A stretch of 64,000 bases of DNA from Spirochaetota bacterium (GCA_965249715.1 CBDFMP010000048.1:69713-133712); one strand, 5' to 3'; shown: positions 57,254 to 63,856, numbered from the stretch's first letter. Numbers and translations: made by a program. Notes: a model not told the origin generated them from the letters alone.

Positions 57254-58138
57254 ATGGACATATTGTCAGCTCCCGCACTTTCCTTAACACCTCTTAATTC
57301 TTATCAGGTCAAGCTTCCCACATGGAGCGGTCCTATGGAATTATTACTGGACCTCATTCGTTCAGCGCAACTGGAAATTACCGAACTCTCGCTTACACAA
57401 ATAACGGAAGATTACCTAAATCGCCTTACTGAGCTTAAACGGCTGGACATTGCCGTGAGTGTGGATTTTTTAGTTATGGGGGCGACGTTGGCGCTTTATA
57501 AAACGCGCGCGCTTCTGGGAGAGCCGGCTGAAGTGGAAGCAGCCGATGCCTACAAGGAAGCATTGGTCCAGCAACTGCTTAAATATGAGCAATACAAACA
57601 GGCGGCTATGCGTTTGGAACAGTTTTTGGAGCAGACGCCCGCTGTTACATTGGAAAAGGTGTCCTTAACAGCGCGTTTGCCGGCGACTGCTAAAGCTTAT
57701 CCTGTGGAACAACATGGGCAGTGGCAGCCTGCATCTTTGGCGGACTTGGCTGCGGCATTTTATCGCATCATGGATCGGCAGACACAAACGCTTGCCAAAG
57801 ATTCTTTTAGCAAATTTGCAGAAAAGGTTGAGGAGAAACGTTTATGGATAGTCAGCGAGCTTAAAGGCGCGCGCGGGATGAAAGGAGTGCCATTTTCGTA
57901 TTTTGTCAAAGCTGCAAGCGGCAACGCACCACTGCCCAGTGAAGTGCTGGCTGTGTTTGTCGCGCTTTTAGAACTTTACAAGCTGGCACAGCTGGAAGCT
58001 TATCAAGCTGAAGCTTTCGCAGAGATTATGCTCTTTAATAATGCCGCGCGTGCGCGCTCAACACCCGCTGAAACCAAGTCGACTGCTGCCACTGAAGTCA
58101 AACACGTCGACACAGCAGACGAACAAGCAGATCACTAA
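57254..58138 (+). CDS. scpA: Segregation and condensation protein A (kleisin)
   Basis: 294 aa. N-terminal GPMELLLDLIRSAQLEITELSLTQITEDYL is typical of ScpA. Its last ~56 codons form unit 0 of the downstream repeat array. Confidence 0.85.
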   Translation: MDILSAPALSLTPLNSYQVKLPTWSGPMELLLDLIRSAQLEITELSLTQITEDYLNRLTELKRLDIAVSVDFLVMGATLALYKTRALLGEPAEVEAADAYKEALVQQLLKYEQYKQAAMRLEQFLEQTPAVTLEKVSLTARLPATAKAYPVEQHGQWQPASLADLAAAFYRIMDRQTQTLAKDSFSKFAEKVEEKRLWIVSELKGARGMKGVPFSYFVKAASGNAPLPSEVLAVFVALLELYKLAQLEAYQAEAFAEIMLFNNAARARSTPAETKSTAATEVKHVDTADEQADH

Positions 58139-60347
58139 ACATAACTTTGTTGTGTTTTTAGAACATTACAAGCTGGCACAGCTGGAAGCTTATCAAGCTG
58201 AAGCTTTTGCAGAGATTATGCTCTTTAATAATGCTGCGCGTGCGCGCCCAACACCCGCTGAAATCGGGGCGGCGGCTGCCATTGAAATCAAGCACGCCGA
58301 CACAGCAGACGAACAAGCAGATAACTAAACATAACTTTGTTGCGTTTTTAGAACATTACAAGCTGGCACAGCTGGAAGTTTATCAAGCTGAAGTTTTCGC
58401 CGGGATTATGCTCTTTAACAATGCCGCGCGTGCGCGCTCAACACCCGCTGAAATCGTGTCGGCTGCTGCCATTGAAATCAAGTGCGCTGAGACAGCAGAC
58501 GAACAAGCAGATCACTAAACATAACTTTGTTGTGTTTTTAGAACATTACAAGCTGGCACAGCTGGAAGTTTATCAAGCTGAAGCTTTCGCAGAGATTATG
58601 CTCTTTAACAATGCCGCGCATGCGCGCCCAACACCCGCTGAAATCGTGTCGGCTGCTGCCATTGAAATCAAGCGCGCCGAGACAGCAGACGAACAAGCAG
58701 ATAACTAAACATAACTTTGTTGCGTTTTTAGAACATTACAAGCTGGCACAGCTGGAAGCTTATCAAGCTGAAGTTTTCGCCGGGATTATGCTCTTTAACA
58801 ATGCCGCGCGTGCGCGCTCAACACCCGCTGAAACCGTGTCGGTTGCTGCCATTGAAATCAAGTGCGCTGAGACAGCAGACGGACAACGATAACTAACGTA
58901 ATTTTGTTGCGTTTTTAGAACATTACAAGCTGGCACAGCTGGAAGCTTATCAAGCTGAAGTTTTCGCCGGGATTATGCTCTTTAACAATGCTGCGGGTGC
59001 AACACCCACTGAAACCGTTTTTAGAACATTACAAGCTGGCACAGCTGGAAGCTTATCAAGCTGAAGTTTTCGCCGGGATTATGCTCTTTAACAATGCCGC
59101 GCGTGCGCGCCCAACACCCGCTGAAACCGTGTCGGCTGCTGCCATTGAAATCAAGTGCGCGAGACAGCAGACGAACAAGCAGATAACTAAGCATAACTTT
59201 GTTGCGTTTTTGGAACTTTACTAGCTGGCACAGCTGGAAGCTTATCAAGCTGAAGTTTTCGCCGGGATTATGCTCTTTAACAATGCCGCGCGTGCGCGCC
59301 CAACACCCGCTGAAACCGTGTCGGCTGCTGCCATTGAAATCAAGTGCGTCGAGACAGTAGACGAACAAGCAGATAACTAAGCGTAACTTTGTTGCGTTTT
59401 TAGAACATTACAAGCTGGCACAGCTGGAAGATCACTAACATAACTTTGTTGTGTTTTTAGAACATTACAAGCTAGCTCAAGCTGAAGTTTTCGCAGAGAT
59501 TATGCTCTTTAACAATGCCGCGCGTGCGCGCCCAACGTTGAAACCTGCGCTGAACGTCGACACAGTAGACGAACAAGCAGATAGCGGTAACTTTGTTGCG
59601 TTTTTGAACATTACAAGCTGGCACAGCTGGAAGTTTATCAGATTGAAGCTTTCGCAGAGATTATGCTCTTTAACAATGCCGCGATGCGCGCCCAACACCC
59701 GCTGAAATCGTGTCGGCTGCTGCCATTGAAATCAAGTGCGCTGAGACACAGACGAACAAGCCGATAACTAAGCGTAATTTTGTTGCGTTTTTAGAACATT
59801 ACAAGCTGGCACAGCTGAAAGTTTATCAGATTGAAGTTTTCGCAGAGATTATGCTCTTTAACAATGCCGCGCGTGCGCGCTCAACACCCGCTGAAACCGT
59901 GTCGGTTGCTGCCATTGAAATCAAGTGCGCTGAGACAGCAGACGAACAAGCAGATAACTAAACATAACTTTGTTGCGTTTTTAGAACATTACAAGCTGGC
60001 ACAGCTGGAAGTTTATCAAGCTGAAGTTTTCGCCGGGATTATGCTCTTTAACAATGCCGCGCGTGCGCGCTCAACACCCACTGAAACCGTGTCGGCTGCT
60101 GCCATTGAAATCAAGTGCGCTGAGACAGCAGACGAACAAGCAGATAACTAAACATAACTTTGTTGCGTTTTTGGAACTTTACTAGCTGGCACAGCTGGAA
60201 GCTTATCAAGCTGAAGTTTTCGCCGGGATTATGCTCTTTAACAATGCCGCGCGTGCGCGCTCAACACCCGCTGAAACCGTGTCGGCTGCGCCATTGAAAT
60301 CAAGCGCGCCGAGACAGCAGACGAACAAGCCGATAACTAAGCGTAAC
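58139..60347. repeat. Tandem array (~190-bp period; ~11 full and 3 truncated units) copying the overlapping 3' ends of scpA (+) and hemJ (-)
   Basis: The unit landmark gaac(a/t)ttacaagctggcacagctgg occurs at 57971, 58161, 58351, 58541, 58731, 58918, 59024, 59213, 59403, 59460, 59606, 59794, 59984 and 60174. Each unit carries the scpA stop, and its reverse strand carries the hemJ C-terminal ..LSY.LVRLLSRRA codons. Confidence 0.92.
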
Positions 60348-61379
60348 CACGCCAATAACAATAAGCGTCGCAATGAGCGCCGGTAGCGGTTGTTTGAAAA
60401 TGGCTAAGAATACGATGCCGGTAAAGAGCATGGGTGCCACTTTATTGAAGCGCCGCAGCCGACGGCTGATACTTGTTGGCTGGGGGTGGTGTGGCTCCAG
60501 CATGACGCCCGCGATACAAATATGGTAGACCGCCAGTATTATGATCAACATCATTTTCCAGTATATCCAAGACTGGACAAACGCATTGCTTTTATAAGTT
60601 AATGCAATAAGCAGCCCGGAGATAATGGTGAGTATAAACGCAGAAATGGCAACACCGAATATATTGAGTTCCATGGAACTGTACTGTTTTTGTAGGGCTG
60701 CGCGCACTTCAGGGGTTAATGGCTCAGCTCCAGCAGTAGTGCTAAGCGCTTTCTGATGGTACACAGGCAGTTGTCCCCCACAAAAAATTGCCGCCATCCA
60801 GCTTACCATTGTAATAATATGAGCGACTAACATAAAATGGTAAGAAAAATTCTCCTCCCAGAAAAGAACTATAAGCTCATTTTTAAACGTCACAATGAGT
60901 GCCGATGGTGATTGTTTGTAAATTGCTAATAATATAATGCCCATAAAGAGCATGATGCCCATCAGTTTAATGAATAAGTGCAGACGGCGACTGCTCATTA
61001 CCGGCTGGGAGCGGCGCAGTTTCAGCATGATGCCCACGGCATACATATGGTAGCCCACCAGTGCTATGACCAACATCATTTTCCAGTGTATCCAAGACTG
61101 TGCAAAGGCATTGCTTCTGAGTGCAAGCTCAATCCCGAAAGCAATGGTGAGCATAAGCGCAGGCGTGGCAATAACGCTGAGGAGTCTGCGTTCCATGAAA
61201 CTGTACTGTTTTTGTAGGGCTGCGCGCACTTCAGGGGTTAATGGCTTAGCTCCATCAGCAGTGCTAAGCGCTTTCCGATGGTATGTAAGCAGTTGTCCCG
61301 CCAAAAAAAGTGCCGCCATCCAGCTTACCATTGCAATAATATGAATGCCTAAACTAAAATGATGAGAATATAGTTCCAT
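60300..61379 (-). CDS. hemJ: In-frame head-to-tail fusion of two HemJ (protoporphyrinogen IX oxidase, UPF0093) modules
   Basis: 359 aa. Both halves start with ..(E)LYS(H/Y)HF..HII(A/T)MVSWMAA and repeat the whole ~175-aa HemJ architecture. Function of the fusion is uncertain. Confidence 0.65.
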   Translation of the reverse strand: MELYSHHFSLGIHIIAMVSWMAALFLAGQLLTYHRKALSTADGAKPLTPEVRAALQKQYSFMERRLLSVIATPALMLTIAFGIELALRSNAFAQSWIHWKMMLVIALVGYHMYAVGIMLKLRRSQPVMSSRRLHLFIKLMGIMLFMGIILLAIYKQSPSALIVTFKNELIVLFWEENFSYHFMLVAHIITMVSWMAAIFCGGQLPVYHQKALSTTAGAEPLTPEVRAALQKQYSSMELNIFGVAISAFILTIISGLLIALTYKSNAFVQSWIYWKMMLIIILAVYHICIAGVMLEPHHPQPTSISRRLRRFNKVAPMLFTGIVFLAIFKQPLPALIATLIVIGVVTLSYRLVRLLSRRA

Positions 61380-61448
61380 TACAAATGTACTCCCTACCGC
61401 GTGGTATTGAATTTCATAAGAGTTAATGTTTGAATATGTAAAAAATAA

Positions 61449-61637
61449 TTAAAGCCGATTGAGCTCATTGAGACTATTGAGCGCAGCAATTCCATAAGCC
61501 TCAGCCATTGACGAATAAATAAACGTATTATTCAGGAAGTAGCGTAAGTTGTTAGCCGCGCCGCGCTGGTTCATGATGGCTTGACCTAGATGGATGAGCT
61601 CCGAAGTTTGTCGCCCCAAGCAGTGCGCGCCTAAAAT
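61449..61637 (-). pseudogene. Stray copy of the last ~62 codons of sthA
   Basis: ..[51 protein letters not shown] aligns with the true sthA C-terminus. The upstream end is fused to a fragment of the scpA/hemJ repeat (61640-61700). Confidence 0.85.
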
Positions 61638-61681
61638 TTCCCAACACCCGCTGAAACTAAGTTGGCTGCTGCCACTTGAAG

Positions 61682-62236
61682 TCAAGCGCGCCGAGACAGC
61701 AGACGGATAAACAGATAACTAAGCGTAACCACGCCAATAACAATAAGCGTCGCAATGAGCGCTGGTAGCGGTTGTTTGAAAATGGCTAAGAATACGATGC
61801 CGGTAAAGAGCATGGGTGCCACTTCATTGAAGAGCCGTAGCTGACGACTGCTCATTGTTGGCTGGGAGCGGCGTAGTTTCAGCATGATGCCCACGGCACA
61901 CATATGGTAGCCCACCAGTGCTATGACCAACATCATTTTCCAGTGTATCCAAGACTGTGCAAAGGCATTGCTTCTGAGTGCAAGATCAAGTCCGAAGACA
62001 ATGGTGAGCACAAGTGCAGGACTGGCAATAATGCTGAGGAGTCTGCGTTCCATGGAACTGTACTGTTTTTGTAGGGCTGCGCGCACTTCAGGGGTTAATG
62101 GCTCAGCTCCATCAGCAGTGTTAAGCGCTTCCTGATGGTACACAAACAGTCGTCCCACATAAAAAAGTGCCGCCATCCAGCTTACCACTGCAATAATATG
62201 AATGCCGAAACTAAAATGATAAGAATATAGTTCCAT
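61682..62236 (-). CDS. hemJ: Protoporphyrinogen IX oxidase HemJ (UPF0093 family)
   Basis: 184 aa with [22 protein letters not shown] and four TM segments. Confidence 0.8.
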
Positions 62237-62305
62237 TACAAATGTACTCCCTACCGCGTGGTCTTGAATTTCATAAGAGTTAATGTTTGAATATGTGAAA
62301 AATAT

Positions 62306-63856
62306 TTAAAGCCGATTGAGACCGTTGAGTGCAGCAATTCTATAAGCCTCAGCCATTGACGGATAATTAAACGTATTATTCAGGAAGTAGCGCAAGTTGT
62401 TAGCCTCGCCGCGCTGGCTCATGATGGCTTGACCTATATGGATGATCTCCGAAGCTTGCCGACCAAAGCAGTGAGTGCCTAAGATTTCCAGCGTCTTACG
62501 ATGGAAGAGCATCTTCAGCATGCCAATGTTATCGCCAAGGATCTGCGCTTTCGCAAGATTTTTAAAATTGGCAATGCCCACTTCATAAGGGATTTTTGCT
62601 TCCGTCAATTCGCGTTCGGTCTTGCCTATGCAGCTGATCTCGGGTGTGGTGTAAATACCGGTGGGAATATACAATGGCGAGAAATAAAAGCCTTTTAAGC
62701 TAAGTTTTGTCGCCACCAGGCAACGGCCTTGATCATAAGCGACACCCGCTAAACTTGGCCAGCCAATGACGTCACCGGCGGCAAAAATATTTGCTATCTT
62801 CGTCTGATAATCTTCGTTGACAGGCACAACGCCGCGTTTGTTGACAGTAATGCCAACGCGATCCAGTTTGAGACTGTTAATATTGGCGACGCGTCCTTGT
62901 GTCCAGAGCAGATAGGGCGCCTTAATGCACTTTCCCGATGTTAATATTAATTCTATATGATCATCGTATGTTTTCACAGCAGCATAATGTTCGCAGTTGC
63001 GGATGACAATACCCTGATCGCTCATATGGTAGTTAATGGCATTGCTAATCTCAGCGTCCAGGAAATCCAGCACGGTACTGCGGCTGTTGATCAGATCCAC
63101 TTTAGTGCCGAGGTTTTTTAAAATGCTTGCATACTCGCAGCCCACCACACCAGCGCCATAAATGGCAACGCCCACGGGGGTTTCAGTGAGGCCTAAGATT
63201 TTATCGCTGTCTAAGATGCGCGGGTGATTAAAATCAATGGTTTTGGGATGCATGGGACGTGAACCGGAGGCAATGACAATGTTTTCTGCCGTCACGCGTT
63301 CCTTACTGCCATTGGTATCAGTGAGAATGAGCGTGTGTTCATCATAAAAGGAAGCTTCAGCAAACCGCAGGGCAACCTTATTGCGTTTGTAAAAATTGTG
63401 GCGCATGCGCACTTGTGCATCAATGACCGTACGCGCCATGTTCAGAAAGTCTTTGAACGAAGGTGTGGGGGCACTGTATTCTTTGCCCAGATAAGGGATT
63501 TTGGAAAGATTCAAGTAGGCGATAATGCTTTGGCGCACGGATTTTGAGGGAATCGTCCCCCAATGTGTGCAGCCGCCGCCTATTTCTTTGAACCGCTCAA
63601 TGGCAAGAACACGTTTATTGGCTTTGCTTGCCATCATGGAAGCGCCTTCACCGGCAGGCCCTGTTCCAATGACAATAAAATCGTAATGGTAATGATGTTT
63701 CTTAGAGCTTTTACGCGCCGCTTGTTTGGGTTTGGTGTTTGGCTTGCTTGTGGCTGCGTTGTCTGATGCAGAGGGGGCGTCTGAAGCCTTAGCGGTTGCA
63801 GGTGGTTCTGACTTTGTGGTGTGAACTTGTGTGGAGTAAGGAGAGTATTGTCCCAT
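62306..63856 (-). CDS. sthA: Soluble pyridine nucleotide transhydrogenase with a ~50-aa basic low-complexity N-terminal extension
   Basis: YDFIVIGTGPAGEGASM..IGGGCTHWGTIPSK is diagnostic of SthA. At 516 aa it exceeds the ~466 typical. Confidence 0.88.
   Translation of the reverse strand: MGQYSPYSTQVHTTKSEPPATAKASDAPSASDNAATSKPNTKPKQAARKSSKKHHYHYDFIVIGTGPAGEGASMMASKANKRVLAIERFKEIGGGCTHWGTIPSKSVRQSIIAYLNLSKIPYLGKEYSAPTPSFKDFLNMARTVIDAQVRMRHNFYKRNKVALRFAEASFYDEHTLILTDTNGSKERVTAENIVIASGSRPMHPKTIDFNHPRILDSDKILGLTETPVGVAIYGAGVVGCEYASILKNLGTKVDLINSRSTVLDFLDAEISNAINYHMSDQGIVIRNCEHYAAVKTYDDHIELILTSGKCIKAPYLLWTQGRVANINSLKLDRVGITVNKRGVVPVNEDYQTKIANIFAAGDVIGWPSLAGVAYDQGRCLVATKLSLKGFYFSPLYIPTGIYTTPEISCIGKTERELTEAKIPYEVGIANFKNLAKAQILGDNIGMLKMLFHRKTLEILGTHCFGRQASEIIHIGQAIMSQRGEANNLRYFLNNTFNYPSMAEAYRIAALNGLNRL

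Follow-up and report, generated by a model that had tools for sequence, protein, structure and literature searches.

A triplicated hemJ locus with an in-frame HemJ-HemJ fusion in a tandem-duplication-rich Spirochaetota genome

Homo-oligomeric membrane proteins can become pseudo-symmetric single chains by duplication and fusion, a general evolutionary route treated in the literature on dual-topology and internal-repeat proteins. The family concerned here is HemJ, or PgdH2 (PF03653, UPF0093; TIGR00701), with Synechocystis Slr1790 and Acinetobacter ACIAD0878 among its members, which a review (PMC13564367) describes as a membrane b-type heme protein and a stable dimer. At the level of the genome, the closest described case is the tandem-repeat-rich Ehrlichia ruminantium, for which PMC3287509 gives a tandem-repeat share of 6.3%, with 0.38% for Escherichia coli. 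The Ehrlichia duplications (Collins et al. 2005, PNAS, cited in PMC3287509) run across the ends of genes, with shortened genes and extra spacers as the result, and copy-number variation between strains is the hallmark.

Here we analyzed a window of 64,000 nucleotides (CBDFMP010000048.1:69713-133712) from a Spirochaetota bacterium (GCA_965249715.1), in which hemJ occurs as one separate gene, copy A, and two fused modules, B and C. All three modules match the HemJ profile. The bacterium resembles E. ruminantium in being host-associated and in having a small genome with several percent of long-period tandem DNA, and its duplications likewise run past gene ends, so that partial genes and copied spacers remain. 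As in fused pseudo-symmetric membrane proteins, two homologous helix bundles follow each other head to tail within a single frame, and the number of helices in the first is even. The locus differs from the Ehrlichia case in its phylum, its relative being a starfish subcuticular symbiont, and in that duplication took in an entire gene of an essential pathway and joined two of its copies in frame. A search for a second genome of the species found none.

Layout of the locus and its relatives

Read along the minus strand, sthA and a 69-nt spacer lead to hemJ copy A; some 41 nt of the scpA tail come next, then a copied sthA 3′ end, a second spacer and a 359-aa fusion ORF. The features are as follows, with positions counted from the first letter of the window.

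57254..58138, plus strand: scpA, 294 aa, convergent with hemJ (PF02616)
57956..60347, plus strand: tandem array, 190-bp unit, about 13 copies (repeat analysis)
60300..61379, minus strand: fusion ORF, 359 aa, HemJ modules B and C (two PF03653 stretches)
60300..60866, minus strand: fusion module C, aa 172-359, HemJ helices 1-5 (57.9 bits with TIGR00701)
60837..60908, minus strand: B/C linker, aa 158-181, PSALIVTFKNELIVLFWEENFSYH (hydropathy, model)
60867..61379, minus strand: fusion module B, aa 1-171, HemJ helices 1-4 (79.4 bits with TIGR00701)
61380..61448, minus strand: spacer copy 2, 69 nt (66/69 positions, or 96%, identical to spacer copy 1)
61449..61640, minus strand: stray copy of the sthA 3′ end, last ~62 codons (repeat-family alignment)
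61641..61681, minus strand: scpA 3′-end relic in reverse complement, ~41 nt, after the hemJ A stop (alignment to the 190-bp array units and to the sequence 3′ of the fusion ORF stop)
61682..62236, minus strand: hemJ copy A, 184 aa, five predicted helices (PF03653 at 124 bits)
62237..62305, minus strand: sthA-hemJ spacer, copy 1, 69 nt (sequence; GGGAG Shine-Dalgarno-like motif with the ATG 10 nt further on)
62306..63856, minus strand: sthA, 516 aa, soluble pyridine nucleotide transhydrogenase-like flavoprotein (Pfam Pyr_redox_2 and Pyr_redox_dim)

Recomputed ORFs, Pfam matches and repeat alignments confirmed all the positions given in the original prediction. Its claim of three hemJ copies, two of them fused in frame, agreed with a six-frame search of the genome, which returned exactly three strong matches (E = 3e-116, 2e-77 and 1e-74). 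The proposed unit of about 857 bp, made up of the sthA 3′ end, the spacer and hemJ, was indeed present twice; its 5′ end is the last ~62 codons of sthA, and it also takes in a piece of the scpA tail, the relic, at its 3′ end. Unit A is spaced 857 bp from unit B, and B is spaced 522 bp from C. A further hemJ-only repeat makes the in-frame fusion as predicted, with this 522-bp spacing replacing the suggested size of ~540 bp. The stray sthA copy is about 10% different from the sthA tail, mostly by amino-acid-changing differences, and has a 9-nt in-frame insertion. Spacer copy 2 supplies the fusion ORF with the same ribosome-binding region as copy A. The B/C junction reads ...ALIVTFKNELIVLFWEENFSYHF.... 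The fusion does contain two HemJ modules, but not two complete ones, as module B ends near residue 164 of the 184 and has no fifth C-terminal helix, a feature of this lineage. The linker consists of a helix 5 stump plus some 25 nt whose origin is uncertain; no membrane span is predicted for it. Each unit of the neighboring 190-bp array copies the region in which the convergent scpA and hemJ meet at their 3′ ends.

Related genomes, the comparison originally called for, were then searched for the same region. In COTS27 (G001), a crown-of-thorns starfish symbiont of the same genus, and in G002, a member of the same family, scpA points toward hemJ, and sthA precedes hemJ, both on the strand opposite to scpA; each genome has one hemJ (200-204 aa) and no array. 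The sthA and scpA products are 73% and 46% identical, respectively, to their COTS27 orthologues. Four more genomes of the same order also gave single hemJ matches. Since COTS27 and G002 each carry one hemJ, the triplication is lineage-specific. The fusion architecture was absent from these two and from the four further genomes of the order. Neither a tandem nor a double-length HemJ appeared among the best 150 of 508 matches in a library of 1.84 billion representative proteins, all 150 being at most 261 aa long, and a word-based search over the range of 197-628 aa returned the query alone. Judged by the best 150 of 508 matches and the word-based search, the fused HemJ-HemJ protein is not a recurrent architecture. 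A search for other assemblies with these proteins found none, and a PDB sequence search yielded no solved structure of any relative.

Conservation and decay in the three HemJ copies

Copy A, which adjoins sthA, is presumed from its sequence to be the working protoporphyrinogen oxidase/dehydrogenase (HemJ = PgdH2). It retains all near-invariant HemJ residues (H13, W20, R29, Y33, P73, W96, K100, R134, N137 and E138, in copy A numbering) and breaks 3 of the 33 columns that are at least 70% conserved among 149 HemJ representatives. The PF03653 cut-off of 34.2 bits was exceeded by copy A (124.2 bits) and by the fusion (128.9 bits over two stretches). The TIGR00701 equivalog cut-off of 138.05 bits was missed by copy A (107.7), module B (79.4), module C (57.9), the whole fusion (125.3) and the COTS27 orthologue (110.5). 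Because the whole lineage lies below this cut-off, the shortfall of copy A reflects divergence, not decay. The lineage also differs from many proteobacterial HemJ proteins in having a fifth C-terminal helix and a length of 184-204 aa, compared with ~141-147 aa. Differences between copy A and its COTS27 orthologue avoid conserved columns (3/34 versus 56/112 in variable columns, p=8e-6), and the N/S count of copy A since duplication (10/4, small numbers) is a weak sign of purifying selection. Heme pathway genes are open in the genome, namely hemH (268.8 bits), hemE (275.1 bits) and hemF (304.6 bits). Neither HemY/PgoX nor HemG/PgdH1 was found in the 85%-complete genome, where TIGR00562 matches were all below cut-off and PF12724 had no match. 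At this completeness the absence of other oxidases is provisional, and copy A is provisionally the sole candidate for the protoporphyrinogen-oxidising step alongside hemE, hemF and hemH.

The fused modules break 11 (B) and 13 (C) of the same 33 columns. Both carry R29Q, E36K and E138K, with R134H and N137I additionally in module B and P73S in module C, and they differ in this from the family, in which R29 and P73 are each conserved in 99% and E138 in 95% of the 149 representatives. H13, W20, Y33, H34, G82, W96, K100, Y110 and H111 are kept in both. Loss of conserved residues need not mean loss of all activity. The helix-4 region of module B is about 23% diverged. Module C has GAG at the position of the copy A ATG, so that it has no start codon of its own, and carries in-frame indels of -3 and +6 nt; over its last third it matches copy A at about 97% identity. 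Differences from copy A showed no avoidance of conserved columns, either in module B (9/34 conserved versus 24/112 variable, p=0.64) or in module C (11/34 versus 40/111, p=0.84). When polarised by COTS27 as outgroup, unique derived residues numbered 3 in A, 14 in B and 22 in C. N/S counts were 34/14 for B and 55/11 for C, the neutral ratio being 2.7, and dN/dS of the fused modules was about 0.9 to 1.9. Given that near-invariant residues were lost in both modules, the fused ORF most likely represents a membrane protein that is left over or has been re-purposed, rather than a working double enzyme.

The fusion frame contains no stops and no frameshifts. In a neutral simulation of substitutions, which leaves out clustered multi-base events, the probability of no stop was 0.20 x 0.11 = 0.022. 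Three indels of the fusion are in frame and none breaks it; in the adjacent 190-bp array, at a similar substitution number, 11 of 15 small indels break the frame, this neutral comparator being possibly unusually indel-prone or assembly-error-prone. Helix hydrophobicity changed by +5.8 in module C, compared with a simulated -26.8 +/- 15.4 (P=0.016), and by -0.9 in module B, compared with -19.5 +/- 13.7 (P=0.08). The intact frame and helix hydrophobicity above neutral expectation lend some support to the earlier suggestion that the fusion may be more than junk. However, 11 of the 33 old, long arrays of the genome are still covered by a single ORF, so that an open frame is not rare in this genome, and the locus was picked for study because of its open fusion frame.

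Hydropathy predicts four helices, a non-spanning linker and five helices, with the positive-inside pattern retained; these nine hydrophobic helices replace the 8-TM protein of the original prediction. The AlphaFold2 model of the fusion is all-helical with a short linker helix. With four helices in the first module, an even number, the second could enter the membrane in the same orientation as the first, and one membrane orientation for both fused halves is compatible with the prediction. The fused ORF is probably translated.

Copy history and readings of the fusion

The host, a starfish-symbiont-like spirochaete, duplicates DNA unusually often. Its 2.4-Mb genome holds 205 long-period tandem arrays (period of at least 60 bp) that cover 232.6 kb, or 9.6%. 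Under the basic, published TRF settings, tandem repeats make up 8.6% of the genome, compared with the E. ruminantium share quoted above for the same settings, and 5.8% of a 260-kb COTS27 sample; in COTS27, tandem repeats in genic regions left assembly gaps (PMC7444263). Duplication units cross gene boundaries, as seen in the sthA 3′ fragment, the scpA-tail relic and the 190-bp units with both gene ends. The hemJ copies are mosaics: copy A is like B in codons 1 to ~130 and like C in codons ~130-172. Derived residues are shared by B and C at 3 sites, by A and B at 3 and by A and C at 4, and the groupings are about equally supported. The mosaic pattern requires unequal recombination or gene conversion as well; the two-step duplication history first put forward is right in its units and insufficient as a full account. 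The copies are compatible with more than one order of events.

We regard it as reasonably probable that this is a tandem-duplication locus in which copy A is the working HemJ and the fused B-C is out of HemJ-type selection, forms no working dimer and is probably translated. The genome-wide tandem-duplication tendency would have shaped the locus, and we infer replication slippage or unequal recombination as the probable mechanism. Starting from scpA convergent with hemJ and sthA upstream of hemJ, duplication of the 857-bp unit would account for copy A and unit B, an in-frame repeat of 522 bp for the B-C fusion, and repetition of a 190-bp unit at the scpA and hemJ ends, about 13 times, for the array; recombination or gene conversion between copies would afterwards have produced the mosaics. 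Copy A would remain the working HemJ (PgdH2). The B-C ORF, released from HemJ-type selection, would not be a functional covalent HemJ dimer, and with the ribosome-binding spacer of copy A it would probably still be transcribed, its translation giving a membrane protein of nine helices with co-oriented modules. Selection apparently holds it open and hydrophobic, which may be because a broken membrane protein is harmful or because of some non-catalytic role.

The original prediction raised the idea of a working covalent HemJ dimer, which would have both modules oxidising protoporphyrinogen IX; this now appears highly improbable. Each module covers nearly all of the PF03653 profile, the open frame has a good ribosome-binding site, and HemJ is reported to be dimeric (PMC13564367). 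However, residues that are 95-99% invariant have been lost (R29 and E138 from both modules, P73 from C), together with R134 and N137 from B; replacements fall on conserved and variable columns alike, dN/dS is about 1 or above, an intact copy A lies upstream, and one gene is enough in relatives. An assembly artefact, in which strain variants or mis-joined metagenome reads would hide a real chromosome with one hemJ, is also improbable. The genome is MAG-like (49 contigs, 85% complete) and the fusion protein was found in no second assembly, but the copies are 8-25% different, with distinct indels and unique junctions (scpA relic/sthA copy, B/C linker), and are not collapsed or expanded identical repeats; nor would 99%-invariant residues differ among strain variants. 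The 202-kb contig resolves arrays of 99%-identical 336-bp units and a 9.7-kb array, which suggests long reads, and the same duplication style occurs about 200 times in the genome and also in the closed COTS27 genome.

It is possible, though we doubt it, that the fused ORF has become a neo-functionalised paralogue or a pseudo-enzyme, an expressed 9-helix pseudo-dimer retained for a new role, which kept the helix core and the histidine proposed as heme ligand and shed the conserved polar R29, E36, R134, N137 and E138. The frame intact above neutral expectation, the retained helix hydrophobicity, the nine residues present in both modules and the 96% conserved ribosome-binding spacer all fit such a paralogue, as do the junction position, the even helix number and the same orientation of both modules. 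The reported stable dimer of HemJ (PMC13564367) makes a fused dimer structurally plausible. The N/S of 55/11 in module C, a ratio of ~1.85 to the neutral 2.7, hints at adaptive change, but this excess of N over S is marginal (~p=0.04) and inflated by clustered changes. The replacements are, moreover, statistically blind to family conservation, the architecture is absent from relatives and from the best 150 of 508 representatives, and the ~200 comparable duplications in the genome are mostly plain leftovers.

Returning to the preferred reading, a fused ORF released from HemJ-type selection, we compared B-C with fused pseudo-symmetric membrane proteins. It differs from them in that it is unconserved in relatives, neither half shows a sign of family-type selection and an intact single-module gene is adjacent. 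On sequence comparison, B-C is not an established protein of this kind, its architecture being neither conserved in the related genomes nor recurrent among the best 150 of 508 matches; it may at most be an early or failed instance of the pseudo-symmetric fusion route. It is unlikely, in our estimate, that B-C is an expressed and selectively retained 9-helix HemJ-derived pseudo-dimer whose role is new or non-catalytic, such as partnering copy A or handling porphyrin or heme. If true, it would offer a rare view of how a homodimeric membrane enzyme becomes a single chain via duplication and fusion, with the conserved polar residues of the family already dropped.

Layout and ancestry of the hemJ locus

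The genome under study (2.42 Mb, 49 contigs, 85% complete) carries three HemJ-coding stretches: a single gene (copy A) beside sthA, and the two halves (modules B and C) of a fusion ORF.

Features of the locus, in window coordinates (the window covers 69713-133712 of contig C48):
62306-63856, minus strand: sthA
62237-62305, minus strand: first 69-nt spacer
61682-62236, minus strand: hemJ copy A, 184 aa
61641-61681, read on the minus strand: about 41 nt of the reverse complement of the scpA 3′ end
61449-61640, minus strand: copy of the last ~62 sthA codons, ~10% diverged, with a 9-nt in-frame insertion
61380-61448, minus strand: second spacer, identical to the first at 66/69 positions
60300-61379, minus strand: 359-aa fusion ORF with two PF03653 stretches; module B, residues 1-171; module C, residues 172-359
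57956-60347: array of about 13 units of 190 bp, copies of the abutting 3′ ends of convergent scpA and hemJ

Repeat spacing was 857 bp from the A unit to the B unit and 522 bp from B to C. The join from B to C runs through ...ALIVTFKNELIVLFWEENFSYHF..., and a junction-spanning peptide would fall within ...NELIVLFWEENFSYHFMLVAHIITMVSWMAAIFCGGQLPVYHQK. A six-frame search of the whole genome gave strong hemJ matches at these three copies only (E = 3e-116, 2e-77 and 1e-74). Two array units, at 58913-59018 and 59398-59600, were irregular, one being shortened to 106 bp and the other measuring 203 bp, with a 42-nt insertion (a partial copy of the unit start) and several small deletions; such irregular units suggest repeated rounds of slippage inside the array. 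We also observed a 78-aa ORF (61449-61685, minus strand) that starts at a TTG overlapping the stop codon of copy A (cgcgcTTGActt) and crosses the scpA-tail relic into the stray sthA C-terminus, a dimerisation-domain fragment. It could be translated by coupling but is probably meaningless.

The closest homologue of copy A, 55% identical to it, comes from 'Spirochaetota bacterium' COTS27, a member of the same genus with a closed genome of 2.68 Mb. There the gene order is scpA-> <-hemJ <-sthA, with a single hemJ of 204 aa and without the array. The same three genes are tightly packed in a genome from another genus of the family, again with one hemJ (200 aa), and four further genomes of the same order yielded one hemJ match apiece. 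Because hemJ is single in all of these relatives, the triplication arose in the lineage of the genome under study. In addition, sthA is 516 aa long here, compared with 496 aa in the COTS27 genome and 474 aa in the other genus, and its N-terminus (63700-63856, minus strand) has a low-complexity extension of ~45 aa, rich in S, P, A, T and K, before the FAD-binding motif.

An assembly artefact would fit the observations that these proteins occur in no other assembly, exact-sequence look-ups matching this genome alone, and that copy A, used as the query against metagenome and genome contigs, retrieved only distant HemJ of alphaproteobacterial or Bacteroidota type (37-44% identity). We nevertheless regard this explanation as very improbable, because divergence between the copies is 8-25%, each has indels of its own, the junctions are unique, and the differences extend to family-invariant residues. 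Furthermore, much harder arrays, such as six 336-bp units at 99% identity or 6.5 units of 1497 bp, are resolved in the 202-kb contig, a sign of long reads, and duplications of the same style number about 200 in this genome and are also found in the closed genome of the congener. As assembled, the architecture is real, and the original prediction described it correctly, with two corrections to the fusion given below.

Divergence and constraint among the three copies

To define conserved positions, the three modules were aligned with 149 HemJ representatives, giving 33 columns with at least 70% conservation. Departures from these columns numbered 3 in copy A, 11 in module B and 13 in module C, including several nearly invariant residues.

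Residues of the three modules at conserved HemJ positions (copy A numbering; family conservation in parentheses):
R29 (99%): A, R; B, Q; C, Q
E36 (83%): A, E; B, K; C, K
P73 (99%): A, P; B, P; C, S
R134 (96%): A, R; B, H; C, R
N137 (95%): A, N; B, I; C, N
E138 (95%): A, E; B, K; C, K

Between copy A and the COTS27 orthologue, changes affected 3/34 conserved and 56/112 other columns (Fisher p = 8e-6). The corresponding counts were 9/34 and 24/112 between A and B (p = 0.64), and 11/34 and 40/111 between A and C (p = 0.84). Conserved columns were avoided by the differences between A and the orthologue, but not by those between A and B or A and C. When polarised with the COTS27 sequence, unique derived residues numbered 3 in A, 14 in B and 22 in C. 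Non-synonymous/synonymous branch counts were 34/14 for B and 55/11 for C, with a simulated neutral ratio of 2.7. Scores against the HemJ equivalog model (TIGR00701) were 107.7 bits for A, 110.5 for the COTS27 orthologue, 79.4 for B and 57.9 for C. In this 85% complete genome hemH, hemE and hemF are intact and neither HemY nor HemG was detectable, which indicates that HemJ activity is needed. Judged from these sequences, copy A is evidently the working HemJ that would provide it, and the substitution patterns indicate that modules B and C are evolving without HemJ-type constraint.

The original prediction derived the copies from duplication of an ~857-bp unit and a further hemJ-only duplication. 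The duplications themselves are borne out, but they do not suffice, since A, B and C are mosaics of one another that require, in addition, at least one recombination or gene-conversion event. From codon 1 to about 130, C stands apart from the closely similar A and B (singleton substitutions: A 10, B 18, C 60); over codons ~130-172 it is B that stands apart from the nearly identical A and C (A 4, C 1, B 26). Shared derived residues gave about equal support to each pairing (BC, 3 sites, R29Q, E36K and E138K; AB, 3; AC, 4), a conflict that leaves both a single (A,(B,C)) history and an origin of copy A as a B x C recombinant accounting for only part of the data. Elsewhere in the genome no donor was found for the hyper-diverged stretches of modules B and C, and the best local match to a ~25-nt part of the B|C linker, 11/12 nt in the sthA tail, is too short to trust. 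We therefore claim no unique order of events.

The fused reading frame and its possible roles

HemJ of this lineage has five hydrophobic segments, and its length is close to that of many other family representatives (~170-190 aa); the fifth is a C-terminal helix without a counterpart in the ~141-147-aa proteobacterial proteins. Instead of the eight transmembrane helices originally expected, the fusion is predicted to have 4 + 5 = 9, with module B stopping at a stump of helix 5 and a 24-residue linker predicted not to span the membrane. On this topology, both modules could be inserted in the same orientation. AlphaFold2 gave an all-helical model in which the linker forms a short helix; the pLDDT (~90, confident, for module B; 55-80, weaker, for module C) mostly reflects where alignment rows mapped and has no bearing on function. 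Since the fusion ORF has the spacer and GGGAG motif of copy A in front of it, it is probably translated. Module C has GAG at the position of copy A's ATG and no well-spaced ribosome-binding site of its own. A scan for promoter and terminator consensus motifs produced nothing but weak matches close to background and was disregarded.

Under simulated substitutions the frame stayed open in 20% of trials for B, 11% for C and 2% jointly, figures tempered by the 11 of 33 old, long arrays of this genome that a single ORF still spans, by the choice of this case for being open and by clustered substitutions, which break the model. The three indels within the modules (+3, -3 and +6 nt) are all in frame. 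As a neutral comparator we used the neighbouring 190-bp array, with 124 substitutions versus ~114 in the fusion modules, in which 11/15 small indels break the frame. The absence of frame-breaking indels from the fusion has a rate-based P(0) of ~4e-5 and a type-based Fisher p of 0.04, although this array could have an unusual tendency towards indels or assembly errors. Kyte-Doolittle helix hydropathy changed by +5.8 in C, versus -26.8 +/- 15.4 simulated (P = 0.016), and by -0.9 in B, versus -19.5 +/- 13.7 (P = 0.08).

The replacements look unconstrained, yet the frame has held up better than would be predicted under simple neutrality. On sequence evidence, the fusion would be a HemJ-derived membrane protein without the conserved residues of its family. 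HemJ, now PgdH2, has been described as a b-type heme protein of the membrane and apparently a stable dimer (PMC13564367). A fused dimer is therefore structurally plausible, but no such architecture is known. The fusion was searched exhaustively against 1.84 billion representative proteins; a tandem HemJ would rank high there because both halves would match, yet the best 150 of 508 hits, all at most 261 aa, included no double-length HemJ. A word-based search that scored 8000 candidates found only the query itself as a fused HemJ at 197-628 aa, and no solved structure was found for any relative. A functional double enzyme, the covalent HemJ dimer of the original prediction, is unlikely: the unconstrained evolution of B and C, with near-invariant residues lost, Fisher p values far from significance and falling model scores, speaks against it. 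The fusion ORF is most likely a still-translated relic, and a re-purposed pseudo-dimer is less likely. The preserved frame and hydropathy suggest that it is probably kept from turning into a broken membrane protein, or has some non-catalytic use.

Tandem duplication across the genome

TRF identified 205 arrays with a period of at least 60 bp; together they occupy 232.6 kb (9.6%) of the genome. Under the settings of a published comparison, tandem repeats made up 8.6% of this genome and 5.8% of a 260-kb sample of the COTS27 genome; the former share is higher than the 6.3% of Ehrlichia ruminantium and the 0.38% of E. coli (PMC3287509). Tandem duplication is a lineage-wide habit, of which the hemJ locus is one instance.

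Among the long-period arrays, 95/205 (46%) had a period divisible by 3, versus 33% expected, and in 44% of these, but only 3% of the others, one open frame covered 90% or more of the array (examples: contigs C48:159751-169478, C31:9631-14795 and C49:267614-269656). This excess and the spanning frames indicate that many arrays repeat in frame within ORFs, as repeat proteins or fused duplicates, and are not solely intergenic debris. A 20-kb sample of the COTS27 genome (C1:1700001-1720000) was a single tandem array throughout, with at least 10.6 copies of an 1887-bp unit (86% matches), and is presumably a gene for a giant repeat protein. In the genome under study, a weak HemJ/CopD-like match (C24:9329-9793; 27% identity, E = 6e-4) sits in a 560-aa open frame with one in-frame TGA, and an array with a 666-bp period lies just downstream (C24:10301-12072).

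The locus mainly illustrates, in well-resolved form, how gene copies, fragments and in-frame fusions arise in a duplication-prone symbiont genome, and it also shows how quickly family-specific constraint is lost in extra copies. For annotation it is a warning, as pipelines would label the 359-aa ORF as HemJ despite the loss of residues that almost never change. If the fusion is expressed and retained, it would represent a natural early stage in the passage from a dimeric membrane enzyme to a single-chain pseudo-dimer and, for an enzyme still poorly characterised in mechanism and structure, would indicate R29, E36, R134, N137 and E138 as residues needed for HemJ catalysis.
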